Shown: positions 14,664 to 32,179 of the stretch, in pieces
How positions within the stretch are numbered: the first letter of the stretch is position 1
Layout of the letters: each line of letters opens with the position of its first letter
Assembly: GCA_964462565.1 (NCBI GenBank)
Contig: CAYWYC010000002.1
Span: 1 to 56,913, forward strand
DNA length: 56,913 nucleotides
Reading direction: 5' to 3'
From: an uncultured Candidatus Sumerlaeota bacterium
Lineage (GTDB): Bacteria > Sumerlaeota > Sumerlaeia > UBA8349
Notes under the pieces: generated by a model
What the model saw: the letters and a program-made list of their open reading frames with translations, nothing else
Database searches by the model: none
What the model was told of the DNA's origin: nothing
Program-made: the position numbers and the translations under genes

Positions 14664-17600
14664 ATGGCTGATAAGTATAACGATGACATAAATTTGCCTG
14701 ATGGTTCTGGTTTTTCCGATGCAGAGCGGCTCCGGAAAAAAGTGGAGGACATGCTTGCGGGGAATCACTCGGATGTGGAGGATCTTTCGCAGGAAGAAGT
14801 AAAGCGGGTGATCGAGGAATTGCAACTGCATCAGGTGGAATTGCAGATGCAGAATGAGCAGCTGCGTCAGACGCAGAGTGAGTTGGAGGAGTCTCGCAGC
14901 GATTACGCGGATTTGTACGATTACGCGCCTGTGGGTTACCTGACGATTGACGGAGCCGGTATCATTAAGCGCGTGAACTTCACCCTGGCGGACATGCTGG
15001 GCTGCACCAAGAAAGACTTGGTGGGCAATCCGCTGGGCCGATTTGTTCCGGAAGAAGCCCGCAACGCCTTCTATTCCTATTATCGCCGTTTTCTAGTTAC
15101 AAGTTCCCTCAAGAAGTGGGAGACGCTGCTGCAATCGCGCGATGGCTCACGCCTGGACGTGATGCTGGAAAAGCGCCGCGAAAAATCCCAGGGACCCTTT
15201 GGGAACGAGTCCGGCAGTTTGCGGCAGGTGGCGGTGATCGATATCAGTGATCGCAAGGAAGCCGAGCGCGCCCTGAAAGATTTGAACAATGAACTGGATA
15301 AGCGCGTGCAGGACCGGACCTTCGAACTGCGCGAGGAAATCACGGAACGCAAGAAGATCGAGGAGCAACTCCGGAAAATCCAGGAACGACTCGATATGGC
15401 GCTTTGGGGCGCTCGCGTCGCCTGGTGGAGTTGGGATGTGCCTTCGGGCGAAGTGGTAACGAGCACGGGCAAGTGTGAGATGTTGGGCTATGATCCCAAG
15501 GATTTTGGCTTGCGCGAGGACGGCGTTATTGCCCAGCATGTGGACCAATGGATTTCCCTGATCCACCCCGAGGACTATGAGGGCGCCATGGAGTGCATGA
15601 GAGGGCATCTGCGCGGGGAAAAAGATTTGTACGAGGTGCGCTACCGCCTCCAGAAGGCGGACGGAGATTGGATGTGGCTTTTTGACCGGGGCCGCATTGT
15701 GGCGCGCGATGAAGACGGCAAGCCCCTGCGCCTGAACGGTGTGGTTCAGGATATCAGCGAAACCCGGAAGTCGGAACTCGAGCGTGAGTGGTTTTTCAAC
15801 CTGTCCATTGACATGCTGACAATCGCGGGGCTGGACGGCTGCTTCCGCCAGCTGAATCCCGCCTGGGAAAAAATCCTGGGATGGGAACACGGAGAACTTC
15901 AGGGGCACTCCCTGCTGGAATTTATCCACCCCGAAGATCGCGATGAAGCGCAAACCGTGATCGATGTGCTCAAGGCGGGGCGGTCGGTGGCGAGTTATGA
16001 AAATCGCTTTCGCTGTAAAGACGGTTCCTACAAGTGGTTGCTCTGGAGTTCTTTTTCGCTTCCGGGCGAGGGACTGGCTTTTTCTGTCACGCGGGATATT
16101 ACGGACCGAAAAAGAACCGAGCAGGAACTGAACCAACTGAACCAGGAACTGGAACAGCGCGTGGAAGAACGCACCCGGGCCCTGCAGTCGGAAACGGAAA
16201 AGCACAAGCAGACGGCAATGGACCTGACATTGTTCCGGCGGGCCTTGGATAACGCGGTAGACTCGATATTCGTGATTGATCGTCAAAGCATGAAACTGGT
16301 GGATGTGAACGTCGCGGCCTGCGAATCACTCGGCTACAGCCGCGAAGAATTGCTGCAAATGGGGCCACAGGATCTGAAGCCCCTGAAAGCGCGTGAGGAC
16401 CTGGAAAAGGAATTTGACGGGGTGATCGGCGGCGGGCCTGAGTATGGGGCCATCGAGACCTTGCATCAGCGCAAGGACGGCAGTCGCTTTCCTGTGGAAA
16501 TATTCTTGAACGCCGCGCAGGTGCATGGTCGCAACATTATTGTGGCCGCCGCGCGCGATATTACGGAACGCGAACGGGTGCAGGCGGAGCTGGAAGCGGC
16601 CAAAAATACGGCAGAAGCGGCAAACCGGGCCAAGAGCGACTTTCTGGCCAATATGAGTCACGAAATCCGAACCCCCATGAACGGCGTGATCGGTTTGACG
16701 ACCCTCCTTCTGCAGACGGAACTCGACGCGCGGCAACGGGAATATGCCCAAGCCACCCAGGCCAGCGCCACCTCCCTGCTTGCCCTGATTGACGATATTC
16801 TGGACTTTTCCAAGATCGAAGCCGGCAAGATGGACCTGGAGACTATTGATTTTGACCTGCATGACGTTTTGGATGATATCGTGGGGATTCTGGGCTACAA
16901 GGCCTGTGAAAGCCGTCTGGAACTGATCTGTCATGTGGATCCCGCTTTGCCCCACTGGTTGCGCGGGGATCGGCAGAAATTGCGTCAGATCCTGCTGAAC
17001 CTGGCCAATAACGCCATCAAGTTTACCGAATCGGGTGAAGTGGAAATACAGGCGAAACTCCAGGAAGCCCGGGAGGATGACTTTCTGGTCCACTTTTCCG
17101 TGCGGGACACGGGGATCGGCATCAGCCCGGAAAAGAGCCGCAAACTCTTTCAGGCTTTTTCCCAGGCCGACTCCAGCACGACCCGCCGCTTTGGTGGAAC
17201 GGGCCTGGGCCTCGTGATTTCGAAACGTCTGGCCGAAATGCTGGGAGGCTCCATTGGGCTGGAAAGTGAAGAAGGGGACGGATCGGTATTCTGGTTTGAA
17301 CTTCCCCTGAAGATGGGCGAAGCAGTGGGCGATGTGGACAAGACGATCAAACCCGAACTCAGCGAGGACCTGCGGGTGCTGCTGGTCGATTCGTGTGACG
17401 CCTTTCGCCGCAATATGAAAAAGCAACTGCTCGCCTGGGGTATTCCGGATATTGAAGAAGCCGCCAGCCTGGCCGCGCTTTCCGGCCAGTTGGATCGTGC
17501 CGCGAGAAATCACCGCCCCGTCCAGCTGATTTTCATGGATGCCAACCTGGACCCGGATGAAGTGGCCCTTACGGAAATGTTGCATAACATAAGCAGTCAC

Positions 17601-18212
17601 ACAGATTGGGGACATCCCGAAGTGATTCTGATGTCGGCAATCAATCGGGACGAGCCGAACGTGAGCCGGGAACTGTATCGCTGCACCATCGCCAAACCGC
17701 TTCGCTATGATGCCCTGCTGAAAAGCCTGCTTGCCTATGGTCGCGATTTTGCTGATTCCACTTCCACTGCAAGGCGGCCCACTGATTCCGTTCTTCCCGC
17801 TTCGGAAGGCTTGCATTTGTCGGAAGAAATGCGTAACTTCGATGGCGTGGAAGTGCTGGTAGCGGAAGACAATCCCATCAACCAGATGGTGGCGGAAGGA
17901 ATGCTGATGGACCTGGGGATGTCGGTCGATTGCGTTTCCAATGGACGCGAAGCCGTGGAAGCGGTCCAGCAGAAGCCCTACGACCTGGTCCTGATGGATT
18001 GCCAGATGCCCGAAATGGACGGTTTCGAGGCCACCGGGCGCATACGAAGCCTGGACGGCCGATATGTACCGATCATAGCCATGACCGCAGCGGCCATGAA
18101 GGGGGATCGCGAAAAATGCCTGGATGCGGGGATGGATGATTACCTGGCCAAGCCCGTCCAGATCGAGGAAATTCGAAAGATGGTTTCGAAATATCTCAAA
18201 ATGAAGCGCTGA
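14664..18212 (+). CDS. Multi-PAS hybrid histidine kinase (BarA/RcsC-type core, two receiver domains)
   Basis: About four PAS/PAC repeats, KSDFLANMSHEIRTPMNG, DILDFSKIEAG, NAIKFT, DSSTTRRFGGTGLGL; final receiver VAEDNPIN..MDCQMPEMDG..KP. Confidence 0.93.
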   Translation: MADKYNDDINLPDGSGFSDAERLRKKVEDMLAGNHSDVEDLSQEEVKRVIEELQLHQVELQMQNEQLRQTQSELEESRSDYADLYDYAPVGYLTIDGAGIIKRVNFTLADMLGCTKKDLVGNPLGRFVPEEARNAFYSYYRRFLVTSSLKKWETLLQSRDGSRLDVMLEKRREKSQGPFGNESGSLRQVAVIDISDRKEAERALKDLNNELDKRVQDRTFELREEITERKKIEEQLRKIQERLDMALWGARVAWWSWDVPSGEVVTSTGKCEMLGYDPKDFGLREDGVIAQHVDQWISLIHPEDYEGAMECMRGHLRGEKDLYEVRYRLQKADGDWMWLFDRGRIVARDEDGKPLRLNGVVQDISETRKSELEREWFFNLSIDMLTIAGLDGCFRQLNPAWEKILGWEHGELQGHSLLEFIHPEDRDEAQTVIDVLKAGRSVASYENRFRCKDGSYKWLLWSSFSLPGEGLAFSVTRDITDRKRTEQELNQLNQELEQRVEERTRALQSETEKHKQTAMDLTLFRRALDNAVDSIFVIDRQSMKLVDVNVAACESLGYSREELLQMGPQDLKPLKAREDLEKEFDGVIGGGPEYGAIETLHQRKDGSRFPVEIFLNAAQVHGRNIIVAAARDITERERVQAELEAAKNTAEAANRAKSDFLANMSHEIRTPMNGVIGLTTLLLQTELDARQREYAQATQASATSLLALIDDILDFSKIEAGKMDLETIDFDLHDVLDDIVGILGYKACESRLELICHVDPALPHWLRGDRQKLRQILLNLANNAIKFTESGEVEIQAKLQEAREDDFLVHFSVRDTGIGISPEKSRKLFQAFSQADSSTTRRFGGTGLGLVISKRLAEMLGGSIGLESEEGDGSVFWFELPLKMGEAVGDVDKTIKPELSEDLRVLLVDSCDAFRRNMKKQLLAWGIPDIEEAASLAALSGQLDRAARNHRPVQLIFMDANLDPDEVALTEMLHNISSHTDWGHPEVILMSAINRDEPNVSRELYRCTIAKPLRYDALLKSLLAYGRDFADSTSTARRPTDSVLPASEGLHLSEEMRNFDGVEVLVAEDNPINQMVAEGMLMDLGMSVDCVSNGREAVEAVQQKPYDLVLMDCQMPEMDGFEATGRIRSLDGRYVPIIAMTAAAMKGDREKCLDAGMDDYLAKPVQIEEIRKMVSKYLKMKR

Positions 18213-20408: not shown

Positions 20409-20719
20409 CCTGCAGTGAAATTGGAAAAAACGATTGACATTATTGTCATATTTGAGCATTGTATCATCGGGTTTGATGGTTATTGCAGGTAAATCTGGCT
20501 TTGAACCAATATTGCTTTCTTTGGAAGGGAACTGGCATTTGTATGCTTGCTGGTGGCTTTGAAAAAAGCCTTTCCCCTGCCTGTTTCTCTATTTATTGGA
20601 TTCATTGCTCATTCGTAGGTTCGGGTTAATCTTTCTGCGCTGCGGAATTTATATGGATTCGTTTGTTTTCCAAAACAATTGCAGCTATTCAGGGACGAAG
20701 TGGGCTATCCGGAGAAATT

Positions 20720-23236
20720 ATGGTGAGTGAGTATCCGTCGCAGATTGAAGTAAAAAACGATCAACAGCCTCCGCTCTTTGTCCTGGTTATCGATGACGAT
20801 GAGGGGTTTCTCGAGAGCCTGCGGGCTCTTATTCTGGACGAAGGCATGCACTGTCTGGGGGCTTCCAACTGCGATGCGAGCCGGAGCCTGATCGAAGAGA
20901 ATGAAATCGACGTCATTTTGCTCGACTATCAGATAATGGGTAATGAGGACCTGGCTTTTCTGGGTGAAATCAGCGAAAAGTATCCCCATATCCCGATTAT
21001 CCTGATCACCGGCTATCCTTCCATGGAAACGGCTATCGAGTCCTTTCAATATCAGGTATATGACTATCTGACCAAACCATTCGATTGTGCCCGCCTCATC
21101 CAGCGCTTGTGTGAAGCAGGAGAGAAAAAACGGCTGCAGGATGCGCGACGGGAAATTGGCCTGCGGGAGCAGTATCTGGACGCGATTAAAAGGGCTTCAC
21201 AGTCGCTCCTGCCGGCGCATGAGGTGCTACCGTTTGAGGACTTTCTGGCATGTCTGGGGCGTGGTTTCAAAGCGAGACGCATCCATACGCTGCAGAACCA
21301 TTGGTCCCTGGAAGGGGCGCGTCTTTTCAGTGCGGTGGCCGAATGGACCAAGGCGGGTATCGAGCCGGTAACAAATGCGCATTATCTGCATAACATGCCT
21401 TATTTCAAGGGCTTGGAGCGTTGGGAAAGAGAACTCGCCGCAGGACGGCCTCTTCAGGATAAACGGGGAAACATGCCCGAAGGTGAGGCCGAGTTTCTCA
21501 AGCAGCTCGGCATAGAATCCATCTTGCTGATTCCACTTCTGGTGGATGTGAATTTCGAGGGATTCCTGGCTTTTGAGCCGGAAGATCCGGAGCATGTATG
21601 GAGTAACATGCAGATCGAATTTCTCACCATGGCGGCAAACGACCTGAGCCTGGCGATTCGGCGCTATCGGGCCGAACAGGCCCTGCGCGAAAGCAAGGAA
21701 CGTTTTCGCGCCATAGCCGACTACAGCCACGACTGGGAAAGCTGGGTCGGGCCGGATGGACGCCTGATCTGGGTGAATTCCGCCGTCAAGCGCCTTACCG
21801 GCTATTCTCCGGAAGAATGCCTGGATATGCACGACTATCCCATGCCCATGGTTCCTCCGGAAGACAAAGACAAGATGTGGCGCCTTTTCCGAAATTGTCT
21901 TGAGGAAAAAAACGTGGGAAATGATAAGTGCCTGTCCATGGTGCGGAAAGATGGCAGGGGAATTCATGTATCCATGTCCTGGCATCCCATTTATAACCAA
22001 TTTCAGCGTTATCTCGGACAAAGGCTGAGCATTCGCGATATCAGCGAACGCAAACGCATGGAGGAAGAACGCGAAGAACTGCTGGATCGACTTCAAAAGG
22101 CCCAAAAGATGGAAAGCCTTTCCATGATGGCGAGCGGCATTGCCCACGATTTCAATAACCTGCTGATGGTGGTCATTGGAAACGCGGAGCTTGCCCTGAT
22201 GGATATTGATAAAGATCATTTTCTGGCAAAGCCCATTGAAGAAATGGGAAAGGCTGCCCAGAAGGCCGCCGAACTCAGCCAGAAAATGCTGGTTTTTTCC
22301 GGGCATGGCAAATACCACTTTAAAAAGTGGGGAGCGAAAGAACTGCTTTATGAAATCAAGCCTGAACTCGATGAAGTCGTGGGCAAAGAAGTAGAACTGG
22401 AATATCAGTTTGATGAACAAATGCCGAACATCAACGCGGACCTGGCCCATATTCAGCAAATGATGATGTCGGTGATCAGAAACTCCCGCGAAGCCATTAC
22501 CCACATGCGAGGGCGGATCGTAGTCCGACTCTATGGCCAGAAGATTTCCGAGCACGATCGGAAGTCTATTATCGGAGATGATTTTGAGCCGGGAGAATAT
22601 ATCTGTATTGAAGTATCGGACAATGGCTCCGGCATGGACGAAAAGACACTGGCGAAGGCTTTCGATCCCTTCTTCACCACCCGGTTTACGGGACGGGGAT
22701 TGGGTTTACCGGCGGTTCTGGGAATCGCAAAAGCCCATCATGGCGGTGTGGAGATAAGCAGTCAGCCGGATATAGGCACTGTATGCAAGATATACTTGCC
22801 TCAATACGCTAGCCAAGAGACGAAAAAGACTGTTGCCCCGGCTGCAATAGCCAATTGGAAGATGTCCGGCACGATTCTCTTTGCCGATGACCAGGAACAA
22901 CTACGAACGATGTCGCAACGCAGCTTGAGCCGCTATGGTTTTAACCTGATCCTGGCCGAAAATGGCGCTCAGGCCCTGCATCTTTACCGCGAAAATAAAG
23001 AACATTTGTGCTGTATCATTCTGGACCAGACGATGCCCGAGGTAACCGGAGCGGAGGCACTGGAAGAAATCCGGAAGGAAGACCGCGAGGTTCCCATTAT
23101 CCTGTGCAGCGGCTATTCAGAAAAGGAAATCGAAAAACTGCTGCCCCGTGACCAGATTCAGGGCTTCCTGCAAAAACCCTTCAGCATGGCCGAACTGACT
23201 CGTACCCTTTATGATATCCTTGAAGATAAAAAATAA
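20720..23236 (+). CDS. Hybrid histidine kinase (REC-GAF-PAS-HisKA-HATPase-REC)
   Basis: N-terminal receiver (VLVIDDD..LLDYQ..KP), [40 protein letters not shown] and a C-terminal receiver. ATG at 20720 follows GGAGA. Confidence 0.9.
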   Translation: MVSEYPSQIEVKNDQQPPLFVLVIDDDEGFLESLRALILDEGMHCLGASNCDASRSLIEENEIDVILLDYQIMGNEDLAFLGEISEKYPHIPIILITGYPSMETAIESFQYQVYDYLTKPFDCARLIQRLCEAGEKKRLQDARREIGLREQYLDAIKRASQSLLPAHEVLPFEDFLACLGRGFKARRIHTLQNHWSLEGARLFSAVAEWTKAGIEPVTNAHYLHNMPYFKGLERWERELAAGRPLQDKRGNMPEGEAEFLKQLGIESILLIPLLVDVNFEGFLAFEPEDPEHVWSNMQIEFLTMAANDLSLAIRRYRAEQALRESKERFRAIADYSHDWESWVGPDGRLIWVNSAVKRLTGYSPEECLDMHDYPMPMVPPEDKDKMWRLFRNCLEEKNVGNDKCLSMVRKDGRGIHVSMSWHPIYNQFQRYLGQRLSIRDISERKRMEEEREELLDRLQKAQKMESLSMMASGIAHDFNNLLMVVIGNAELALMDIDKDHFLAKPIEEMGKAAQKAAELSQKMLVFSGHGKYHFKKWGAKELLYEIKPELDEVVGKEVELEYQFDEQMPNINADLAHIQQMMMSVIRNSREAITHMRGRIVVRLYGQKISEHDRKSIIGDDFEPGEYICIEVSDNGSGMDEKTLAKAFDPFFTTRFTGRGLGLPAVLGIAKAHHGGVEISSQPDIGTVCKIYLPQYASQETKKTVAPAAIANWKMSGTILFADDQEQLRTMSQRSLSRYGFNLILAENGAQALHLYRENKEHLCCIILDQTMPEVTGAEALEEIRKEDREVPIILCSGYSEKEIEKLLPRDQIQGFLQKPFSMAELTRTLYDILEDKK

Positions 23237-23263
23237 TGCCGTCAGGCTTTGGGCTTGACGGCA
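23237..23263 (-). terminator. Intrinsic terminator after lpdA, possibly bidirectional
   Basis: Hairpin TGCCGTCAGGC-N5-GCTTGACGGCA, followed on the minus strand by TTATTTTTT. Confidence 0.65.
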
Positions 23264-23292
23264 GTATATGGGCTGGATTGGCTTGATTCCGG

Positions 23293-24702
23293 TCAGACAC
23301 TGACCCGGTGCCTGCGCAGTGGCGGCAGGTGCAGGGGAGCGAAAGAGGCGACTTCCGTGGCTTCCTTGATGGCTTCGCTCATTGTGGGATGGGCAAAGAC
23401 CATTTGTTCAATATCGTGGGCTGTGGCTTTCTGGTGCAGCAGCACACCGGCGGCTGCGATGAATTCCGTAGCCCCGTGTCCGAGCGCGTGGATACCCACA
23501 ATGGCGTCGGTCTCACGGTTGCGGATAACCTTGACGAATCCCTCGGGATCGCCCCAGGCCTGGGCCTTGCCAAGGGCCGTGAAGGGAAATGTGCCCATGG
23601 CGATGGGAATGCCGCGATCTCGGGCCTGGTCTTCCGTCTGGCCGACTCCGGCGATTTCCGGAAATGTATAGACGCACCATGGAACGGGCGCGGTCGATTC
23701 GCGGTCAGCGCCCAGGGCGTTTTCCACGGCTACGATCGCCATGGCCGAAGCCGCGTGGGCCAGCAGAATGCGACCGTTTACGTCGCCAATGGCATAATGC
23801 CCCACAACGGTGGTTTCCATGCGGTCATTCACCGGAATAAAGCCGCGTTCCACGTCGATTCCCAACTTGTCCAGAGCCAGTTCTTCCGTGTTCGGGCGGC
23901 GGCCCACCGAAACCAGCATCCTGCTCGCCTCAATGCTGTCGCCGTTGGAAAGGGTGGCCTTGACCCCCGCATCCGTCTCTTCCACTTTTTCCACCTGCGT
24001 CTCCAAAAGGCAGTCTATCTTTCGCTTTTTGAACACTTTAAGCAGTGATTTGGCCAGATCGCCATCCATGCCCGTGATCAACTGGGGGAGCATCTCGACG
24101 ATCGTGACCTTGACGCCAAACTCCGCCAGCAGGCAGGCGAATTCGCAACCGATAACGCCGCCGCCGACAATCAGCAGGCTTTCGGGCAGTTCGGTCCAGT
24201 CCAGGGCTTCGTCGCTGGTGACGACCTTGTCGCTCACGGGCCAGCCGGGAATGCGGGCCGGGCGGCTGCCGGTAGCGATGATGACCTTGTCGGCCTCCAA
24301 GGTGAGATCTTCCTTGCCGCCGGAAACGGCTATCTTGCCGGGACCCTCAAAGTGGGCCGTACCTTCAATAAAATCAATCTCACGCTTGCCAAAAAGAAAG
24401 TGCAATCCCTTCCGTTGGCCGTCGAGGACCTGGTTCTTGCGCTTGAGCAGCGTGCTCCAGTCAACCGTCGCTTCACCCGAAACCTGAATGCCCAGGATTC
24501 CGGCGCGGTGGCGGATATCATGAAGCAATTCCGCTCCGGCCAGAAAGGCCTTCGTCGGGATGCATCCACGGTTCAGACAGGTGCCGCCGGGCTTGTCTTT
24601 TTCAATCAGAGCCACCTTCGCGCCCATTTCCGCGGCCTTCAGCGCGGCCACATAGCCGCCGGGGCCGGATCCGATTACTGCGATGTCGTATGCCTTGCTC
24701 AT
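23293..24702 (-). CDS. lpdA: Dihydrolipoyl dehydrogenase (E3)
   Basis: GSGPGGY, GGTCLNRGCIPTK redox disulfide, GGGVIGCE, LAHAA and HPTMSE. Confidence 0.95.
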   Translation of the reverse strand: MSKAYDIAVIGSGPGGYVAALKAAEMGAKVALIEKDKPGGTCLNRGCIPTKAFLAGAELLHDIRHRAGILGIQVSGEATVDWSTLLKRKNQVLDGQRKGLHFLFGKREIDFIEGTAHFEGPGKIAVSGGKEDLTLEADKVIIATGSRPARIPGWPVSDKVVTSDEALDWTELPESLLIVGGGVIGCEFACLLAEFGVKVTIVEMLPQLITGMDGDLAKSLLKVFKKRKIDCLLETQVEKVEETDAGVKATLSNGDSIEASRMLVSVGRRPNTEELALDKLGIDVERGFIPVNDRMETTVVGHYAIGDVNGRILLAHAASAMAIVAVENALGADRESTAPVPWCVYTFPEIAGVGQTEDQARDRGIPIAMGTFPFTALGKAQAWGDPEGFVKVIRNRETDAIVGIHALGHGATEFIAAAGVLLHQKATAHDIEQMVFAHPTMSEAIKEATEVASFAPLHLPPLRRHRVSV

Positions 24703-26282
24703 CAGGCTAAAGCCTCCATTTCCAATACTTCCGGACTTTCCAGGATTTTCTTCAATTCACCCAGGAACTGGGCCGCCACCATGCCGTCGATCACGCGGTG
24801 ATCGCTGGAAAGCCACATGCTCATTTCCTTGGCCGGAACCATGGCGCCGGGTACGATTTTAACAGTGTCCTTGACCTTTCCAACGGCCAGAATGGCTGCT
24901 TCCGGGGGATTGATGATGGCCGTAAATTCTTCAATCTGAGTCATCCCCAGGTTGCTGATGGTAAAGGCGCCCTTGCCGGCGTTCACCATCTTGCCGCTGC
25001 GGGCCTTGCTGATGGCGTCCTTGCTGGCTCCGGCAAGGTGTTGCAAGCTCATGCGATCCACGTCCGTAATCACCGGCACACGCAGTCCATCATCCACGGC
25101 CACGGCCATGCCGATGTTCGCGCCGGGAAACTGGAGCAGTTCATTGGCATGTACCTGACAACGGAACGGGGGATATTTCATCATCGTGCGCGCCACTGCC
25201 AGCAGGAGCAGGTCATTGATCGATGCCTTGCAGACCAGCTTCTGTCGGGCATAAACCTCAAGCAGCTTGCCGGCGTCGATGGTCAGCTTCATGTAAAAGT
25301 GGGGGGCCGTGTTGACTGAGTTGGTCAGGTTCTTGGCGATTGCCTTGCGCATTCCCGTCATCACAACACGGGTGGCTGCTTCCGTGCGTGGTGTGAAGAC
25401 CGGAGCGCTTGCTGCCGTCGGAGCCGCCTGGATTCCCTGGAGATCGTCCGTGATGATGCGACCATGAGCGCCGCTTCCAGCGGAGATGGATGCCGGGTCT
25501 ATGCCTTTTTCGGCGGCCAGACGTCGGGCGGCGGGGGAAATCTTCTGGCGACCATTTCCATCGCTCGCGGCAGCCGAAGGAGCTGTTTGGGCGGCTGGGG
25601 CCGGTTTGGGTGCTTCCTGCACTTTGGCCATGGGGGCTTCTTCGTCGGCAGGCTCTTCTTCTGATTCTGATTGACTTGCGCCGTATTCCTTCAACCAGGC
25701 GTCAAGGGTGTCGGCAGAGTCGGCGATGTATGCGACAGGCTCCATAACGGGTACCGTATCATCGGCCTGCGCCACGATGCGGCAAAGAGGACCCTCAAAT
25801 TCCGATTCCACTTCAAGCGTTGCCTTGTCCGTTTCCATCTCGAAAAGGATGTCGCCTTTCTTGATGGTGTCGCCTTCCTTCACTTTCCATTCCAGGATCG
25901 TGCCTTCTTCCATGTCGTTACCCGCCTTGGGCATTACGATCATCTGCACCGCTTCCTGGGCTACCGAAGCCGCTGATTTCTTGTCCGCCATTTTATCATT
26001 CCCTTCTTTTTGTGCCGTTTTGCTGCTTGTTTTTGCCGTTTCGGAGTCACTTGAAAGGTCACCAATCAAGTCGCCTTTTTTCAGCGTTTTGCCCTTGTCT
26101 GCCGCGATGGATTCCAGCACGCCGTCCTGGCTGGCTTCAATCTCCACGATGCCCGTCTCGATCTCCACCTCCAGCAAGACCTCGCCTACCTCGACGGTAT
26201 CGCCCGGCTGCTTCAGCCAGCGTCTAACGGTGGCATCTGCCGCCTTTCGCGGCAAATCCGGCATTTTAATCGGATTCGTCAT
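24702..26282 (-). CDS. Dihydrolipoamide acyltransferase (E2) with two lipoyl-like domains
   Basis: Second lipoyl domain has ETDKA; E3-binding domain ISPAARRLA; catalytic motifs TISNLG, AIINPPE and DHRVIDG. Probable start is MTNPIKMP at 26282. Confidence 0.93.
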   Translation of the reverse strand: MTNPIKMPDLPRKAADATVRRWLKQPGDTVEVGEVLLEVEIETGIVEIEASQDGVLESIAADKGKTLKKGDLIGDLSSDSETAKTSSKTAQKEGNDKMADKKSAASVAQEAVQMIVMPKAGNDMEEGTILEWKVKEGDTIKKGDILFEMETDKATLEVESEFEGPLCRIVAQADDTVPVMEPVAYIADSADTLDAWLKEYGASQSESEEEPADEEAPMAKVQEAPKPAPAAQTAPSAAASDGNGRQKISPAARRLAAEKGIDPASISAGSGAHGRIITDDLQGIQAAPTAASAPVFTPRTEAATRVVMTGMRKAIAKNLTNSVNTAPHFYMKLTIDAGKLLEVYARQKLVCKASINDLLLLAVARTMMKYPPFRCQVHANELLQFPGANIGMAVAVDDGLRVPVITDVDRMSLQHLAGASKDAISKARSGKMVNAGKGAFTISNLGMTQIEEFTAIINPPEAAILAVGKVKDTVKIVPGAMVPAKEMSMWLSSDHRVIDGMVAAQFLGELKKILESPEVLEMEALA

Positions 26283-26303
26283 ATATTTTTCCTCTCTTTG
26301 AAC

Positions 26304-26431
26304 TCGTGTATTTCTTGCATAATATCTTATCCCTCGCACTCGCAATAGCAATCGCACTCGCATTTAGAATAACCACGAAATACACGAAACACACGAAAAA
26401 TAGAAAAGCGATTGCGAGTGCGCGTGCGATT
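26304..26431. repeat. Composite intergenic repeat: CGCACT/CGCAAT hexamer arms flanking copy 2 of the 33-bp ACACGAAA repeat
   Basis: Hexamer arm at 26334-26362, inverted arm at 26408-26431, core at 26368-26400. 26304-26314 is the reverse complement of 26377-26387. Confidence 0.85.
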
Positions 26432-27621
26432 CAATTTTTCTGATCCATCACGCAATTTATAACTTCTCTATCTTCAGTATTCTTGTCATCCAGTCCGCAA
26501 ATGGATTTCAGGATAAAGTCTTTCCCCTTCGGATAGATATCATCCACAAAATCCTGATCAGCGGGATGCAATTTCCCATTTTCATCACCTTTGCGAAATT
26601 CCATGCCGGCGCAAATGGCATCGGCGATTTTGTCAAAGAGCAGGCCATGTTTGGCGCAGAGAAGCGCCGCGCCTACCAGGCGGTCGTTGCGCGCCAGCTT
26701 GCGCTGGATGTCGCGACCGACCCGATGAATCGTATCACCAAGCGCGCGATTTCGAAAGCGTGAAATCAGGTCGTCCACATGATTTTCGAGCGTCTCAGGC
26801 GTGAACTCTTCAGGATATTCGCGCAAAAGAGCCGCCGCCGACTGCATCATGCATTCCTTCACCTTTTTTGCTGTAAGTTCTTTTTCCAGAACCTCCCAGA
26901 TGTATTCCTGTCCGGGGTCGTCCTGATAGCCCCAGTAGGCCGTGGCGGAATGGCCGAGATTGTGAATCCACAATTTGCGGTCCACATAGGCCTTGATATT
27001 TTCCATGGGCGCCAGGCCATCCACATCAGGCACAAGGTTCTTGAAGCCGCGCTTGTCGAGAATCAGGCGGTTATAGGGTTCCGCAAAGACCCACAGGGGA
27101 TCCTTTTCCAAATCTTCTTGACGCATAATCGGCACCATCTTGCCGATGCTGGTTTCGATAAGCCCCGCCATGTCATCCAGGGGGAAATCGGGCGGCAGCA
27201 TGCTGCTCAATTCCTCCCGAAAGAACTGCGCGGCAGAGTGCAGGTTTTCGGCAATAATGATATCCAGCGGCCGGAGACCGTGGCGTTCATGACGCAACTG
27301 GAGCCCCTTTGCCACGACCGGGAGCACCGACCCAAGGGCGCGCTGTCCGACCGACGTGGCAGCCAGATCGGCATCGGCCAGCACCTTGGCCACGGCTTCG
27401 GTATTTCTCCCATCAATGGCTCTTACGTTCTCTATTTTCAATGTTTCATCATGCCCGTCAGGATGCTTGATGACCACATCATAGGCGTGGCGTTCGTTCA
27501 TGGCGTTCAGGATGCGTTCATCGATATCGACAAAGACCACCTCATAGCCGCTGCGCGCGAAAAGTTGCCCGATGAAGGACCTTCCGATATTACCCGCGCC
27601 AAACTGAACCAGTGTTTTCAT
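26431..27621 (-). CDS. Mannitol-1-phosphate 5-dehydrogenase-family polyol(-phosphate) dehydrogenase (MtlD-like)
   Basis: QFGAGNIGRSFIG, TSVG, IIIAEN, RKLWIHNLGHS, RFRNRALGDTIHRVGR and KLARNDRL. Confidence 0.85.
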   Translation of the reverse strand: MKTLVQFGAGNIGRSFIGQLFARSGYEVVFVDIDERILNAMNERHAYDVVIKHPDGHDETLKIENVRAIDGRNTEAVAKVLADADLAATSVGQRALGSVLPVVAKGLQLRHERHGLRPLDIIIAENLHSAAQFFREELSSMLPPDFPLDDMAGLIETSIGKMVPIMRQEDLEKDPLWVFAEPYNRLILDKRGFKNLVPDVDGLAPMENIKAYVDRKLWIHNLGHSATAYWGYQDDPGQEYIWEVLEKELTAKKVKECMMQSAAALLREYPEEFTPETLENHVDDLISRFRNRALGDTIHRVGRDIQRKLARNDRLVGAALLCAKHGLLFDKIADAICAGMEFRKGDENGKLHPADQDFVDDIYPKGKDFILKSICGLDDKNTEDREVINCVMDQKN

Positions 27622-27642
27622 AACTGCTCTTTCTGGAGTGAT

Positions 27643-28317
27643 TTACATATATTTCGGATAATCGCCCACGAGAAGATGCATGGGGGCTTCGTCTTCTTCG
27701 ATTTCAGGAAAGCGGCCGATTGCCTCGTAGAAACGATTGTCGGTGGTATCGTCATTGACCTGGCTGACTTCTCCGGTCAGGACCCATCCTTCGCCGGGCT
27801 TGGCGTAGAAGCGGTGATAGAGCCCCTGGTAGAGGCAGATGCTTTCGCCGGGAGCCAGTTCGACCTGTCCACCGGGCTGCACCTCATGCAAAACCCCGTC
27901 GATCTTGACCTGAACCGGTGCGCTGCTGAAGCGCTCGTTTTCATCGGAATTATAGAGGTCGATCACCAGTGTACCGCCGCCGCGATTGATGATGTCTTCC
28001 ATTTTCTTCCAGTGAAAGTGCCAGGGCGTCTCCTGATCCTCGCGGACGATCATGATTTTTTCGGCATATACTTTGCTGTCTTTATTGGGGTTGCCGTTTC
28101 GAATCGTGAAAAGGAGGAGGCCCTTCTTCTCGAAATCGTCGGAACCGAAATCCGTAATATCCCAGCCCAGCATGTTGTCTCGAATCTCGGCGCAGGCCTC
28201 GGCTTTGCCCTTCCATTGTTCCGGGCTCCAAAATGCCCAGGGTGGCAGCAGAAAATGGTGTTCCTGAAAAAAATCCTTGGCCTGCTGCATTAAAGCGTTG
28301 ATTTCAGAGCGTTTCAT
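27643..28317 (-). CDS. D-lyxose/D-mannose-family cupin sugar isomerase
   Basis: MKRSEIN, LGWDITDFG, LLLFTIRNG, YAEKIM, HFHWKKMEDIINRGGG, PGESI, GEVSQVNDD and FPEIEEDE; TAAGGAG RBS before the ATG at 28317. Confidence 0.9.
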   Translation of the reverse strand: MKRSEINALMQQAKDFFQEHHFLLPPWAFWSPEQWKGKAEACAEIRDNMLGWDITDFGSDDFEKKGLLLFTIRNGNPNKDSKVYAEKIMIVREDQETPWHFHWKKMEDIINRGGGTLVIDLYNSDENERFSSAPVQVKIDGVLHEVQPGGQVELAPGESICLYQGLYHRFYAKPGEGWVLTGEVSQVNDDTTDNRFYEAIGRFPEIEEDEAPMHLLVGDYPKYM

Positions 28318-28373
28318 GGTGGGATGTCTCCTTAGTGAAGGATGATTTTCATCAAAAACGAAAGGAAAACTCA

Positions 28374-28395
28374 CCTGATCTGAACATAGATCAGG
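28374..28395. promoter_or_regulatory. Palindromic operator candidate in the divergent promoter region
   Basis: CCTGATCT-N6-AGATCAGG between the isomerase gene and the DeoR gene. Confidence 0.45.
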
Positions 28396-28515
28396 CAATT
28401 CCTGCGCAACCTTACAACAACACTGTGCATCATTCAAGCATCTTTTTTCATTTTATTGTTGATTTCCTGTTTCAGCGCAAGCATAATCCATCCGGCCATG
28501 AGGGGCCCGAATGCC

Positions 28516-29322
28516 ATGCGCAACGGCGAAAACATCACCAAAATACAACGCAAGGACCAGATCCTCAAGGCGCTTCTGGAGAAGGGCAATGTGGAAGTGC
28601 GGCAAATATCGAACGCCTTTCAGGTGAGTGAGGCCACGATCCGGCGCGATTTGCGTCAGATGGCCGACGAGGGCCTGCTGGAATTGGTTTATGGCGGGGC
28701 GACCCTTCCGCGCAAGGGGAATTATCCGATTGCTGCTCGCAAGACGCGCAATGTTGAGGCCAAACGCCTTATCGGACGTCTGGCGGCGCAACTGGTCCAG
28801 CCGGGGGACTCCATTTTTATCGATTCCGGCACCACCTGCGCCTGCATGGCTCCCTATCTGATCGACAAGCAGGACGTGACAGTCATCACCAATTCCAATG
28901 CCGTTGCCGCCGACATCGGCTCGCACAGTAATCTGAATGTATTGCAGTTAGGCGGCAAATTTCGTCACGAACGGATGGACTCGGTGGGGCCTTTTGCCCA
29001 GATGGTGATGGAGCAGCTGAGTGGCTTTCGCGCCTTTGTCGGGGCTGATGGCCTGGACCTGCGCATCGGCCTGACCTGCACGGATATCGACACGGCACAC
29101 CTTTATCGGGCCGTCATCCAGCATGCTTCAGAGAGCATTCTGCTGGCCGACCATACGAAATTTTCCGCGCCGGCCCTGTACAAAATCATCGAGATCGACG
29201 CCATTGATCGCCTCGTCAGCGACCGCCGTCCTCCGGAGGAATGGGCCGGACTTTTGAATGACAAGGGGATCGAAATGATCGCCCCGACCACCGAAGAAAG
29301 CACCCCGAACGAAGGTTCATAA
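28516..29322 (+). CDS. DeoR/GlpR-family transcriptional regulator
   Basis: VSEATIRRDL HTH, YGGA, IFIDSGTT, VITNS, LGGK and LADHTKF. Confidence 0.95.
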   Translation: MRNGENITKIQRKDQILKALLEKGNVEVRQISNAFQVSEATIRRDLRQMADEGLLELVYGGATLPRKGNYPIAARKTRNVEAKRLIGRLAAQLVQPGDSIFIDSGTTCACMAPYLIDKQDVTVITNSNAVAADIGSHSNLNVLQLGGKFRHERMDSVGPFAQMVMEQLSGFRAFVGADGLDLRIGLTCTDIDTAHLYRAVIQHASESILLADHTKFSAPALYKIIEIDAIDRLVSDRRPPEEWAGLLNDKGIEMIAPTTEESTPNEGS

Positions 29323-29381
29323 ACAACTTTAAGCGAACAGGCTTTATTTCAATAAAACCAACACAGAAAAGGACGTGAAAA

Positions 29382-31856
29382 ATGCCGAAAAGTATTATTA
29401 TCAATCCCGAAGAAATGCGGAAGGCCAGCTGCCTCAGCATTCCAGAAATTCCTATCTGTCAGTATCAGAAATCGGTCAAGGACGAGGCCAAGAACTACAG
29501 CAAGGAAGACCTGCTGGCCATATACCATGACATGCAGACGATCCGCGTTTTTGAGAACATGCTGCAGGATGTGAAACTCAAGGGTAATTACAATGGCGTG
29601 GAATACGACCACAAGGGCCCGGGCCATCTTTCCATCGGCCAGGAAGCCTCGGCGGTGGGTCAGGCCTTCCTGCTTGACAGCAATGACCACATCTTCGGCA
29701 GTCACCGGTCTCATGGCGAGATCATCGCCAAGAGCCTCTCGGCTATTCGCAAGATGGACGAGAAGGAACTGGACGAAACGCTCAAGAATTACCTGGGCGG
29801 CCTGTGCTATGGTGTGATCGATAAGAACTACGACGGCGACGACGTGCGCGAATTTGCCCGCGAATATCTGCTCTATGGCACTCTGGCGGAAATCTATGGC
29901 CGTCTGGCCGGCATCAACCGCGGCATGGGCGGCTCGATGCACGCCTTTTTCCCGCCCTTTGGCGTTTATCCAAACAACGCCATCGTCGGCGGCTCGGGCG
30001 ATATTTCGGTGGGTGCGGCCATGTTCAAGAAAATCAACCGTAAGGGCGGCATCGTGGTTTGCAATATCGGCGATGCTTCTTCGGCCTGCGGTCCCGTTTG
30101 GGAAGGCCTTTGCCTGGCGACGATGGGGCAGTACAAGACCCTTTGGGAAGGCGACATGAAGGGCGGCCTGCCGCTTATCATGAACTTTGTCAATAATTTC
30201 TACGGTATGGGCGGTCAGCCCTTTGGCGAAACCATGGGTTTTCAGCGTCTGGCGCGTTTGGGTGCGGGCATCAATCCCGAGGCCATGCATGCCGAGACGG
30301 TGGACGGTTACAATCCGCTGGCCGTGGTCGATGCCATGAAGCGCAAGAGAGAGATCATTGCCAAGGGTGACGGTCCGGTCCTGCTCGATACGATCACCTA
30401 CCGCTATTCGGGCCATTCGCCGTCGGACGCTTCCTCCTATCGCGAGAAGAGCGAAGTCGATTCCTGGCGCGAGCATGACAGTATCGAGTCTTTCGGCGAT
30501 CAGCTGGTTGAGGCCAAGGTGGCCACGCAGGCTGAACTGGACGAGATCACCAAGTCCATCGAAGACCGTAACTTCAAGATTTTCAAGATGGCGATCGACC
30601 TGGACCTGTCGCCGCGCATGGACCTGATGAAGCCGGAATGCGAACTCGAGAAGATCATGTTTTCCGATACCCCGGTGGACAATCTGGACCCCGACCGCAA
30701 GCCGGACGTGCTGATGCCCCTGGAAGAGAACCCGCGCCTCAAGAAGATCGCCAAGAAATCGCGTAAGGCCTTTGACGACAAGGGCAAGGCCCTTCCCAAG
30801 TCCCGCGTTCTGGCTCTTCGCGAGGCCCTTTTTGAGGCCATTATCGACCGCTTTTACACCGATCCCACGCTCGTGGCCTATGGCGAGGAAAACCGCGACT
30901 GGGGCGGCGCTTTTGCCGTGTATCAGGGCCTGACGGAAGCCCTGCCTTATCACCGCCTTTTTAACTCGCCCATTTCGGAAGGCGCGATTGTCGGATCGGC
31001 GGTGGGTTATGGGCTTGAAGGCGGACGGCCCCTGGTGGAACTGATGTACTGTGACTTCCTGGGCCGTGCCGGTGATGAAATCTTCAACCAGCTGTCCAAG
31101 TGGCAGAGCATGTCGGGCGGCATTCTCAAGATGCCCGTGGTCCTGCGTGTGTCGGTCGGTTCCAAGTATGGCGCCCAGCACAGCCAGGATTGGACCAGCA
31201 TGGTGGCTCATGTGCCGGGATTGAAGGTGGCATTTCCTGCCACGCCCTACGATGCCAAGGGCCTCATGTACAGCGCCCTGACCGGTACGGATCCGGTGAT
31301 CTTCTTCGAGAGCCAGCGCATCTACGACATCGGCGAGCAGTTCCAGCCCGACGGAGTGCCTGAAGGCCGCTACGAGGTGGCCTTTGGTGAACCCGACATC
31401 AAGCGCACGGGCAAGGACATTACGATCCTGACCATCGGCGCAACGCTTTACCGGGCCATCGAGGCGGCTGACGAGCTGGAGAAGAAGTACGGTATTTCGG
31501 CGGAGATCATTGATGCGCGCTCGCTGGTGCCTTTCAATTATGAACCGGTGATTGAATCGATCAAGAAGACCCGCAAGATTGTCCTGGCTTCCGATGCCTG
31601 TGAACGTGGCAGTTACCTGCATACAATGGCTTCGACGATCAACCAGTTGGCCTACGACGAACTGGACGCTCCGCCCACCGTGGTTGGCGCGCGCAACTGG
31701 ATCACGCCTCCGGCCGAATTGGAAGAGGCCTTCTTTCCGCAGCCCTGGGACATTCTGGACGCGATCAACGAATACATCATTCCGCTGCAGGGCTACCAGC
31801 CCGTGGAAGACGCTGCCGCCGCGGAGAAAATCCGCCGGGAGAAATTCGGCGTCTGA
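29382..31856 (+). CDS. Fused E1 alpha+beta ThDP-dependent dehydrogenase (2-oxoacid/acetoin dehydrogenase family)
   Basis: Alpha part: [24 protein letters not shown] and [11 protein letters not shown]. Beta part: [32 protein letters not shown] and IDARSLVP. Confidence 0.92.
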
Positions 31857-31888
31857 TTCATTGACGAAAAGCAGCGTTAAGCATGAAG

Positions 31889-31945
31889 GCCCTTCTGGGT
31901 TTCAGGATTCTGGTTCGATCCATGAAGCCCGGGAGGGTTTTGTGT
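31889..31945 (+). terminator. Long hairpin / probable terminator after the E1 gene
   Basis: GCCCTTCTGGGTTTCA pairs with TGAAGCCCGGGAGGGT (including G-U pairs) and is followed by a T-rich tract. Confidence 0.55.
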
Positions 31946-32179
31946 TATGGCTCGAGGACCTGGGTACGTTTGGCGCGGCAAAAAAGGGAACTCCCGGCCG
32001 GCTGGATTTTGATCTTGACGTTATGTGAATTTAACAGGCAATATGAAAAGCAGGCATACAGACATAACTGGCGTGTTATCCAAGTGTGGAGGCGGGTAAT
32101 AGTACCGGGACGAAAAAGGCAAACGCCTTGGCGCAAGTCGTCTTAATGCGTGATAAACCAGAATTCTGGAGAGATATAT

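Follow-up and report, generated by a model that had tools for sequence, protein, structure and literature searches.

Introduction

Acetoin dehydrogenase cleaves a carbon-carbon bond beside a keto group and releases an aldehyde. Carbonyl-moving chemistry is known from the L-sorbose pathway, in which the pair of SorE and SrlD shifts a hexose phosphate carbonyl from C2 to C5. The carbinol oxidised by SrlD, and likewise by MtlD, is the one four carbons away from the carbon that bears the phosphate. Here we analyse a cluster of six genes (positions 23293–31856) that encodes a complete E1-E2-E3 dehydrogenase complex, a DeoR-family regulator and two sugar enzymes. It lies in a stretch of 56,913 nucleotides (the window: contig CAYWYC010000002.1 of assembly GCA_964462565.1, positions 1 to 56,913, forward strand) from an uncultured Candidatus Sumerlaeota bacterium. 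The E1 belongs to a family that forms a separate deep branch and is linked to sugar genes in many phyla, and the catalytic motifs of E1, E2 and E3 are kept. The complex probably cuts a sugar-derived molecule into acyl-CoA. Tentatively, we read it as a DeoR-controlled complex that works like acetoin dehydrogenase on a sugar-derived ketol, not on pyruvate, the likeliest substrate being a 1-deoxy-ketohexose 6-phosphate; gene context and sequence comparison are the basis of this reading.

Two published studies bear on the question. In the portion covered here, PMC8579813 (Rodionov 2021) places a three-subunit homologue of acetoin dehydrogenase in the DeoR-type RhaR2 cluster of Caldicellulosiruptor bescii and predicts, without an assay, that it acts on L-lactaldehyde in the last step of rhamnose catabolism; the stated reason is that other lactaldehyde enzymes are missing. 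In the corresponding portion of PMC3870299 (Rodionova 2013), RhaEW was characterised without any such complex, and neither dihydroxyacetone phosphate (DHAP) nor lactate was formed without NAD+; we take this as a hint that the SDR dehydrogenase may act before cleavage. An earlier note on this DNA had proposed that the E1 may cleave a ketose or ketose phosphate to glycolyl-CoA or another acyl-CoA, and knew of no characterisation of such a route; we likewise found no experimental characterisation in the literature covered.

Results

The E1 belongs to a deep, separate family with intact catalytic residues

Genes were called from a list of open reading frames (ORFs) together with two profile libraries (Pfam-type domains and NCBIfam models). 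The thiamine diphosphate (ThDP)-dependent E1 is encoded on the (+) strand at 29382–31856 as a single 824-aa frame without a stop, in which alpha and beta parts are fused, unlike E1s made of separate alpha and beta chains (E1_dh 151.6 bits, Transket_pyr 100.8 bits, Transketolase_C 90.8 bits). The ThDP motif GDA...NN stands at residue 230. H345 in the alpha part (GHS) and H600 and E533 in the beta part are invariant in 12 family rows and 11 references and align with the matching positions of 1NI4_A and 3DUF_B; we take H345 and H600 to be the catalytic alpha and beta histidines and E533 to be the ThDP-activating beta glutamate.

The protein fell below the cut-offs of the pyruvate dehydrogenase (PDH) E1 models TIGR03182 (PDH alpha, 180.8 vs 393.85), TIGR03181 (114 vs 411.35) and NF008854 (223.4 vs 454), and of the subfamily model NF006667 (PDH beta, 238.9 vs 321). 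Its closest solved structures are PDH E1 chains. The alpha part scored 87 bits against human PDH E1-alpha, with an insertion of ~43 residues, and 32–44 bits against alpha chains of branched-chain 2-oxoacid dehydrogenase (BCKDH); no BCKDH E1 model was among the NCBIfam matches of the window E1. These weak scores and the position of BkdA2 outside the 99%-supported group of the tree described below speak against BCKDH E1 chains as its closest relatives. Names such as '2-oxoisovalerate dehydrogenase' that E1 homologues carry at JGI are automatic labels. Similarity to DXS and transketolase models was weak (57–65 bits).

A protein search with the E1 returned at least 8000 scored candidates, the best 120 of which are 818–832 aa long and 67–100% identical; identity in the family is 59–77% across at least eight phyla. 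Two genome scans confirmed at least 573 and at least 594 relatives, and gave 143 distinct loci, distributed over Planctomycetota, Sumerlaeota, Verrucomicrobiota, Armatimonadota, Acidobacteriota, Bacillota, Bacteroidota and Fibrobacterota. Spirochaetota and plasmids of Rhizobiaceae were later additions to this range.

A quick maximum-likelihood tree was made from the last 350 residues (beta domain) of 23 rows, comprising 12 chosen family members and 11 references. Ten references came from annotated plasmid records and one was the split E1 beta on contig C42 of the window's own genome; alphaproteobacterial and mitochondrial-type PDH beta chains were not represented. All members of the E1 family came together in a single clade (SH-aLRT 100), the stem of which measures 1.86 changes per column. 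This clade fell within a 99%-supported group of 20 rows that also holds an annotated AcoB and other Aco-like or sugar-linked E1s, with no resolved branching order inside the group, whereas PdhB of Listeria and Mesomycoplasma and the BkdA2 outgroup fell outside. A phylogeny of the kind that the earlier note had proposed for placing this E1 sets the family in one group with AcoB-like E1s and apart from two PdhB rows and BkdA2, on a long stem of its own. Many positions that are invariant in the family differ from all 11 references; R505 and R562, for example, were present in 12/12 family rows and absent in 11/11 references. R562 aligns with an arginine of the DXS of the same genome, at the position of residue 398 in the E. 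coli chain 2O1S.

E2 and E3 partners and the housekeeping PDH

The E2 acyltransferase is encoded on the (−) strand at 24702–26282 (526 aa). Its open frame extends to 26363, but an ATG at 26282, preceded by a GAGAGGA-type ribosome site, is most likely the start. The protein consists of a lipoyl-like domain without the lysine motif, a true lipoyl domain, an E3-binding domain (47 bits) and a 2-oxoacid_dh catalytic domain, with TDKA at residue 151 and DHRVIDG at residue 494; its best NCBIfam model is PDH acetyltransferase (329 bits, under the cut-off of 445). Residues 1–75 (26060–26282) are lipoyl-like and carry no lipoylatable lysine motif. Most of the longer E2s (about 505–550 aa) of loci with the divergent layout similarly show a single DK motif, at residues 143–189, which suggests that a non-lipoylated N-terminal domain is conserved in the E2s of these loci. 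The E3, a dihydrolipoyl dehydrogenase, is encoded next to E2 (23293–24702, (−) strand, 469 aa; TIGR01350 516.8 bits vs a cut-off of 408.8; Pyr_redox_2 and Pyr_redox_dim domains).

A different partner was seen in Rhizobiaceae. The E1 orthologues of Agrobacterium pAtA6 and Rhizobium pRheCIAT894b are 63–65% identical in the beta part, and each is followed by genes for a 77–78-aa lipoyl protein and an alpha/beta hydrolase. The pAtA6 pair matches the two halves of the AcoC model NF011457 (70 and 159 bits), and pRheCIAT894b has the same gene pair by annotation. The E1 family therefore has an acetoin-type split AcoC as its partner in one lineage, and a classical E2 elsewhere. Together with the 99% grouping with AcoB in the beta-domain tree, this split AcoC bears out the suggestion that acetoin dehydrogenase is the nearest functional analogy.

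The own genome (4.62 Mb, 404 contigs, 88% complete) also encodes, on contig C101, a separate AceE-type E1 (897 aa, PDH_E1_M domain), accompanied by an E2 and an E3 of its own. The complex in the window is additional to this housekeeping PDH. It might be taken for a second, sugar-induced PDH whose sugar neighbours only share its regulation: the E1 alpha part, the E1 beta part and the E2 all score best with PDH models of NCBIfam, the closest structures are the PDH chains named above, the catalytic residues are intact, and pyruvate is the one product common to all sugar contexts. However, every PDH equivalog cut-off was missed, the family has a very long separate stem and many invariant positions unlike all references, its E2 partner in Rhizobiaceae is of the AcoC type, and a canonical PDH is present in the same genome. 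The strict nesting of the MtlD-like gene in genomes with E1, described below, is also hard to square with an E1 that acts on pyruvate alone. We consider a second PDH unlikely.

Other sugar-linked complexes of this kind were noticed. Contig C42 of the own genome (9674–21266, locus L089) carries a second sugar-linked E1/E2 set with a rhamnulokinase-like FGGY kinase. Its E2 is 468 aa long and its E1 is split, with an alpha chain of 361.7 bits vs the PDH-alpha cut-off of 393.85 and a separate beta chain; an apiosidase-like glycosidase (PF13204 and DUF5060), a xylose-isomerase-like TIM barrel and an ALS-like ThDP enzyme are encoded nearby. This set could be an oxidative counterpart of a transketolase-type route for branched sugars. 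A Sinorhizobium pSymB record (L267) shows a sugar ABC transporter, split E1 alpha and beta, split AcoC, an FGGY kinase and an SDR, and a Clostridioides difficile plasmid record (L265) shows an MFS transporter, a SorC regulator, split E1 alpha and beta, E2 and LpdA. Aco-like complexes linked to sugar genes may extend beyond the fused-E1 family.

E1 orthologues are persistently linked to sugar genes

ORFs were called and clustered in the 143 E1 loci, many of which end at contig ends; 12 E1 genes were lost to shadow ORFs. The partners found were E2 (89 loci), E3 (83), DeoR (75), a cluster of SDRs and class II aldolases (65), an MDR dehydrogenase (53), a PHP-like protein (44), RhaA or RhaB (18), LplA (11), MtlD-like genes (10), LipA (4), KpsF (3) and LyxI (1). 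In profile searches, the partner SDR was both sorbitol-6-phosphate-dehydrogenase-like (224 bits), that is SrlD-like, and RhaW-like, and the partner aldolase was RhaE-like. The partner RhaA scored 729 bits, and the partner kinase was rhamnulokinase-like (486 bits, under the cut-off of 528). The MDR is very divergent, with only weak matches to curated models or solved MDR structures, and its SorE-like label is unconfirmed. Rhamnose genes are the commonest catabolic partners of E1. The earlier note had named a lack of sugar-gene linkage among orthologues as an outcome that would speak against its view; this survey found the linkage to be persistent.

The core layout in PVC-type genomes is DeoR>E1 facing E2-E3-PHP-SDR-MDR, and in Clostridia the genes form one operon, often with RhaA, aldolase and RhaB. 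DeoR>E1 divergent from E2-E3 is present in the window. In contrast, the window does not have the PHP-like, SrlD-like SDR and MDR genes beside E3; the gene 3' of E3 is an unrelated sensor kinase. The Rhizobium locus consists of genes for a psicose-3-epimerase-like protein, a fructokinase-like PfkB kinase, a transporter, E1 and the split AcoC.

With rhamnose genes and a class II aldolase in many E1 loci, and with the proposal of PMC8579813 for the C. bescii rhamnose cluster, the complex might be thought to oxidise L-lactaldehyde, or another 2-hydroxyaldehyde released by an aldolase, to acyl-CoA. Yet in the window, as in the Eubacteriales loci and in several Bacteroidota loci, E1 and the MtlD-like gene occur with no rhamnose or aldolase genes nearby, and partners of phospho-sugar type (SrlD-like, M1PDH-like, that is mannitol-1-phosphate 5-dehydrogenase-like, KpsF and PHP) would be superfluous for lactaldehyde. 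The best 80 loci of each E1 scan included no record from Caldicellulosiruptor, and the link to C. bescii rests on the description in the paper. This explanation seems to us improbable.

The MtlD-like dehydrogenase is a recurrent member of the module

Two sugar enzymes are encoded on the (−) strand of the window. The MtlD-like dehydrogenase, of the mannitol-1-phosphate 5-dehydrogenase (M1PDH) type (26431–27621, 396 aa), has the N and C domains of Mannitol_dh. It missed all NCBIfam M1PDH equivalogs (best 235.4 vs a cut-off of 356), and its closest solved structure is the M1PDH 3H2Z (186.8 bits, vs 24 bits for mannitol 2-dehydrogenase). LyxI, of the cupin-type D-lyxose/D-mannose isomerase family, is encoded at 27643–28317 (Lyx_isomer 334 bits). 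With its start reset to 28317 it is 224 aa long and matches the lengths of its homologues; it scored 289.3 bits with NF051472 vs a cut-off of 350, and its closest solved structure is 3KMH (226 bits).

The MtlD-like gene adjoins E1 in 11 other loci. It is 41–43% identical to a gene 3' of E1-LplA in 5 Eubacteriales loci, which have an MDR and lack SDR and PHP genes; in 6 Bacteroidota or Spirochaetota loci, genes next to E1 share 49–52% identity with it. In one Spirochaetota operon (L181, 7995–10517), which also holds an aldolase-SDR fusion, MDR, LipA and KpsF, an 840-aa fusion joins an MtlD-like part (50% identical to that of the window) to a PHP-like part. The phyletic distribution was similarly nested. 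Among 60 genomes from the order of a Bacteroidota carrier (Bacteroidales), the MtlD-like gene was found in 5/8 genomes with E1 and in 0/52 without it (Fisher p 1e-5, which overstates the case as kin are not independent). Among 40 relatives of the window genome from its class, the figures were 5/10 and 0/30, or 6/10 with E1 if a 27%-identical gene 4.5 kb from E1 is counted. E1 was likewise found in 10/10 hand-picked genomes with the MtlD-like gene, 9 of which have it elsewhere than beside E1. Adjacency, fusion and phyletic nesting show that the MtlD-like dehydrogenase is a recurrent member of the E1 module and that the link is not accidental.

LyxI is tied to E1 only loosely, as 2/3 LyxI genomes in the class of the window lack E1. 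It adjoins the MtlD-like gene in 31/80 loci, and a 400-aa PfkB kinase, usually between them, was present in 43/80; GH38, DUF4432, GH29 and MFS genes are neighbours of this LyxI-PfkB-MtlD-like set.

A possible route by carbonyl transposition and ketol cleavage

That rhamnose genes and SorE- and SrlD-like dehydrogenases are the commonest partners of E1 points, from gene context, to a methyl ketol and acetyl-CoA over glycolyl-CoA. In the route that we tentatively propose, an isomerase (LyxI here, RhaA elsewhere) and a kinase would yield a ketose 1-phosphate, and C2 would be reduced by a putative SorE-like MDR reductase, the gene for which is on contig C230 in this genome. A C5 dehydrogenase, the SrlD-like SDR in most genomes and the MtlD-like enzyme here, would then oxidise C5. 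The carbonyl would in this way move from C2 to C5, and a 6-deoxy sugar would become a 1-deoxy-ketohexose 6-phosphate, the C6 homologue of 1-deoxyxylulose 5-phosphate (DXP); starting from rhamnulose 1-phosphate or fuculose 1-phosphate, the result would be a methyl ketol like acetoin. E1 would cut the bond beside the keto group and hand the acetyl group to the lipoyl arm of E2, E2 would form acetyl-CoA and E3 NADH, and a tetrose 4-phosphate would be released. A D-manno substrate, which would fit LyxI and an M1PDH-type enzyme, would give D-erythrose 4-phosphate directly. By Fischer-projection reasoning, substrates of the L-series would give D-threose 4-phosphate or L-erythrose 4-phosphate, which would need further isomerisation. 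Direct formation of D-erythrose 4-phosphate from D-manno substrates may be the reason that PHP and SDR genes are mostly missing from loci with the MtlD-like gene alone (10/12, some of them incomplete). A swap of the SDR for the MtlD-like enzyme within one family agrees with the searches: same-family genomes keep E3-PHP-SDR-MDR beside E2, DeoR and E1, and in the 88%-complete genome studied here neither distant nor same-family queries found an SDR or PHP orthologue (best matches of the same-family queries 31–33% and 27% identical, respectively). The PHP gene was also not found in the two closest same-family genomes (78% and 81% complete).

An oxidative, transketolase-like E1 acting on a ketose phosphate (e.g. 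fructose 6-phosphate, supplied by LyxI and the MtlD-like enzyme) would instead give glycolyl-CoA, an aldose phosphate and NADH, much as the earlier note had it. Ketose-forming enzymes and kinases occur in every context, a ketohexose phosphate could be the direct substrate in the Rhizobium locus, and the LyxI-PfkB-MtlD-like module stands beside GH38 genes. But rhamnulose and fuculose cannot be phosphorylated at C6 and cutting their 1-phosphates in this way would release a phosphoglycolyl unit, although the catabolic partners met most often are rhamnose genes; the conserved pair of MDR and SDR would be left unexplained; and fructose 6-phosphate needs no such route, yet among the genomes searched the MtlD-like gene occurs only in those with E1. 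Glycolyl-CoA formation has, in our judgement, a small chance of being correct.

In its most far-reaching form, which is doubtful, the acetyl-CoA proposal would make the fused-E1 module an undescribed central route from 6-deoxyhexoses to acetyl-CoA and tetrose 4-phosphate with no free lactaldehyde, in which the carbonyl is moved to the methyl end and a DXS-type reaction is run oxidatively in reverse. The window would then represent a second, stereo-complementary entry, with LyxI and the M1PDH-like enzyme (PfkB elsewhere) feeding D-manno sugars such as D-rhamnose to D-erythrose 4-phosphate.

Several observations weigh against cleavage of a deoxy-ketose phosphate. Every chemical step of the route is one that we infer, and none of them assigns a role to the PHP protein. 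As noted above, the best-scoring NCBIfam models of E1 and E2 are PDH models. Within the cluster in the window there are no kinase or transporter genes, and the sole MDR copy of the genome is unlinked (on C230) and only 49% identical even to a same-family orthologue. As the own genome is 88% complete, its missing SDR and PHP genes could lie in unassembled DNA. In rhamnose-type loci the class II aldolase makes the ordinary route to DHAP and lactaldehyde available. The Rhizobiaceae loci have neither MDR nor SDR, only an epimerase or polyol dehydrogenase, a kinase and a transporter, and carbonyl transposition therefore cannot be universal. GH38 alpha-mannosidase-family genes beside free-standing LyxI-PfkB-MtlD-like sets suggest mannose rather than a deoxy sugar. 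An alignment search for a DXS- or transketolase-like phosphate pocket in E1 gave no clear one. A published study, in the portion covered, names DXS residues R420 and R478 for binding of D-glyceraldehyde 3-phosphate (D-GAP); R420 aligns with Val592 of E1, and R478 with Ser644, with Arg646 two columns on, so that clear counterparts are lacking. The counterpart of the transketolase arginine is also Ser644.

Layout of the locus and its rearrangement in this genome

The ORF list and the profile matches bore out the order, strands and divergent layout of the six genes as first described, with three starts corrected. The (−) arm runs from LyxI through the MtlD-like gene and E2 to E3. On the (+) strand, the DeoR-family regulator (HTH_DeoR 56.7 bits, DeoRC 155.8 bits) occupies 28516–29322 and precedes E1 by a gap of 59 nt; its start is 28498 (274 aa) or, more likely, 28516 (268 aa). 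It reached no NCBIfam equivalog cut-off (AgaR 176 vs 260) and shares 38–51% identity with the DeoR genes found ahead of E1 where the E2-E3 layout is divergent. The control region before DeoR (28434–28487, (+) strand) contains a TCAAGCA box followed by TTGA (28434–28462) and an overlapping −35/−10-like pair (28459–28487). The hexamer of this box was present upstream of DeoR in 16/23 DeoR>E1 loci, against 0.22 expected per 290 nt, and the box in the window is nearly identical to that of locus L019.

In genomes of the same family, E2 adjoins DeoR, the PHP, SDR and MDR genes lie 3' of E3, and RhaB lies 3' of E1; the MtlD-like gene is unlinked to E1, 1.4 Mb away in one complete genome and on another contig in the rest. 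In this genome LyxI and the MtlD-like gene lie between E2 and the DeoR control region, and no module gene follows E3. The complex is thus split over two arms and interleaved with sugar enzymes here, as the earlier note had observed, but the interleaving is a recent rearrangement of this genome and not the architecture of the family, since the same-family genomes have E2 next to DeoR and the MtlD-like gene elsewhere. As the insert adjoins the conserved DeoR control region, the inserted genes come under the same divergent promoter region. About 55 nt 5' of the LyxI start, the leader contains an inverted repeat with perfect 8-bp arms and a 6-nt loop, followed by a T-run (28371–28398, (−) strand), which could be an operator, an attenuator, or a relic terminator brought in with the inserted genes.

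The terminator-like hairpins reported at both outer ends held up when folded against shuffled sequences. The hairpin 3' of E1 (31880–31946, (+) strand) folds at −42.6 kcal/mol (z −3.99; 0/200 shuffles fold as well), and the hairpin with U-run 3' of E3 (23225–23267, stem 23233–23267, (−) strand), which lies between a convergent sensor-kinase gene and E3, folds at −16.9 kcal/mol (z −2.94; 2/200 shuffles). The cluster is flanked by unrelated genes, which encode hybrid sensor kinases, a class II tRNA synthetase and a TrmA-like methyltransferase. Of these, the two genes to its left (14664–18212 and 20663–23236) are large and specify hybrid sensor kinase/response regulators that have several PAS domains; no link to the cluster was seen.

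The spacer between the MtlD-like gene and E2 (26283–26430), which folds no better than shuffles (z −1.4), holds a 30-nt interspersed repeat (26371–26400) of three CACGAAA units flanked by inverted arms. The genome has 3 exact and 3 near copies, with copies also on contigs C79, C256, C124, C165 and C230; the copy on C230 is at the contig end, beside the unlinked MDR gene. Word depth at the repeat was 37–52, vs about 12–16 nearby (~3x). Assembly was checked with public k=31 contigs of four runs. These span LyxI-DeoR-E1 (27755–30454) and the joint of the MtlD-like gene and LyxI (26371–28475). None bridged the joint of the MtlD-like gene and E2, where the contigs stop because of the repeat, so that the original assembly is the sole source for this joint. 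Among the listed public holders of the stretch, none is recorded as RNA.

That LyxI and the MtlD-like gene adjoin the complex could in principle be without functional meaning, produced by a chance rearrangement or by a mis-join at the repeat. The unlinked MtlD-like gene of same-family genomes, the joint crossed by no public contig and the loose tie of LyxI to E1 agree with this. On the other hand, the other two joints lie within single public contigs, and a mis-join is unlikely at a 30-nt repeat far shorter than reads. In addition, the MtlD-like gene stands beside E1 independently in three other phyla, once fused to a module protein, and is nested in E1-bearing genomes. We regard a meaningless adjacency as very improbable.

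Discussion

Carriers of the E1 module are polysaccharide degraders of soils, sediments, mats and guts, and in the polysaccharides of plants, algae and microbes, rhamnose, fucose and related sugars are major constituents. Should the complex prove to split a sugar ketol to acyl-CoA, the carbon and ATP yields of anaerobes on these sugars would differ from those of the textbook lactaldehyde/propanediol route, the family, which is at present annotated '2-oxoisovalerate dehydrogenase' or 'alpha-ketoacid dehydrogenase', would have to be renamed, and a new ThDP/lipoate carbon-carbon cleavage would be available for biocatalysis. A widespread, mis-annotated complex may in that case define a sugar route that has gone unmeasured. 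In the natural variant that the window represents, an M1PDH-like gene accompanies the complex and searches of the genome for SDR and PHP genes found none; this narrows which step the accessory dehydrogenases perform.

Among known systems, the heterotetrameric PDH E1s (1W85/3DUF, 1NI4) resemble the window E1 in domain content, in the ThDP motif and in the histidines of the alpha and beta parts and the glutamate of the beta part; in contrast to them, the window E1 is below curated cut-offs, has the ~43-residue alpha insertion and carries R505 and R562. DXS has the same ThDP fold, and the proposed E1 half-reaction would be the reverse of a DXS-type carboligation on a phosphorylated deoxy-ketose; unlike DXS, E1 would pass the C2 unit to lipoamide, and the D-GAP residues have no clear counterpart.

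The rhamnose regulons with RhaEW and DeoR-type RhaR resemble many orthologous loci, which have a DeoR-type regulator, rhamnose genes, a RhaW-like SDR and a RhaE-like aldolase, whereas the window complex has no adjacent rhamnose, SDR or aldolase genes. The L-sorbose pair of SorE and sorbitol-6-phosphate dehydrogenase, along with MtlD, has a parallel in the module, where an MDR occurs together with either an SrlD-like SDR or an M1PDH-like enzyme, but the MDR is too divergent for the SorE-like label to be confirmed, and the MtlD-like enzyme misses the M1PDH cut-offs.

The acetoin dehydrogenase system (AcoA/AcoB/AcoC/AcoL) has the same components, a ThDP-dependent E1 of alpha/beta type, a lipoyl carrier/acyltransferase and a lipoamide dehydrogenase. 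Like it, the window complex exists alongside a separate PDH, has a beta domain that lies in the same 99%-supported group as an annotated AcoB, and has orthologues in Rhizobiaceae that are accompanied by a split AcoC. The differences are that the window E1 is a fused 824-aa chain on a long separate branch, the E2 is of the classical 2-oxoacid_dh type and not a lipoyl domain with an alpha/beta hydrolase, the regulator is of DeoR type and not a sigma-54 activator, and the neighbours are enzymes of sugars and sugar phosphates and not butanediol genes. The complex is most like the acetoin dehydrogenase system, yet by E2 type, regulator and E1 clade it is not a member of it.

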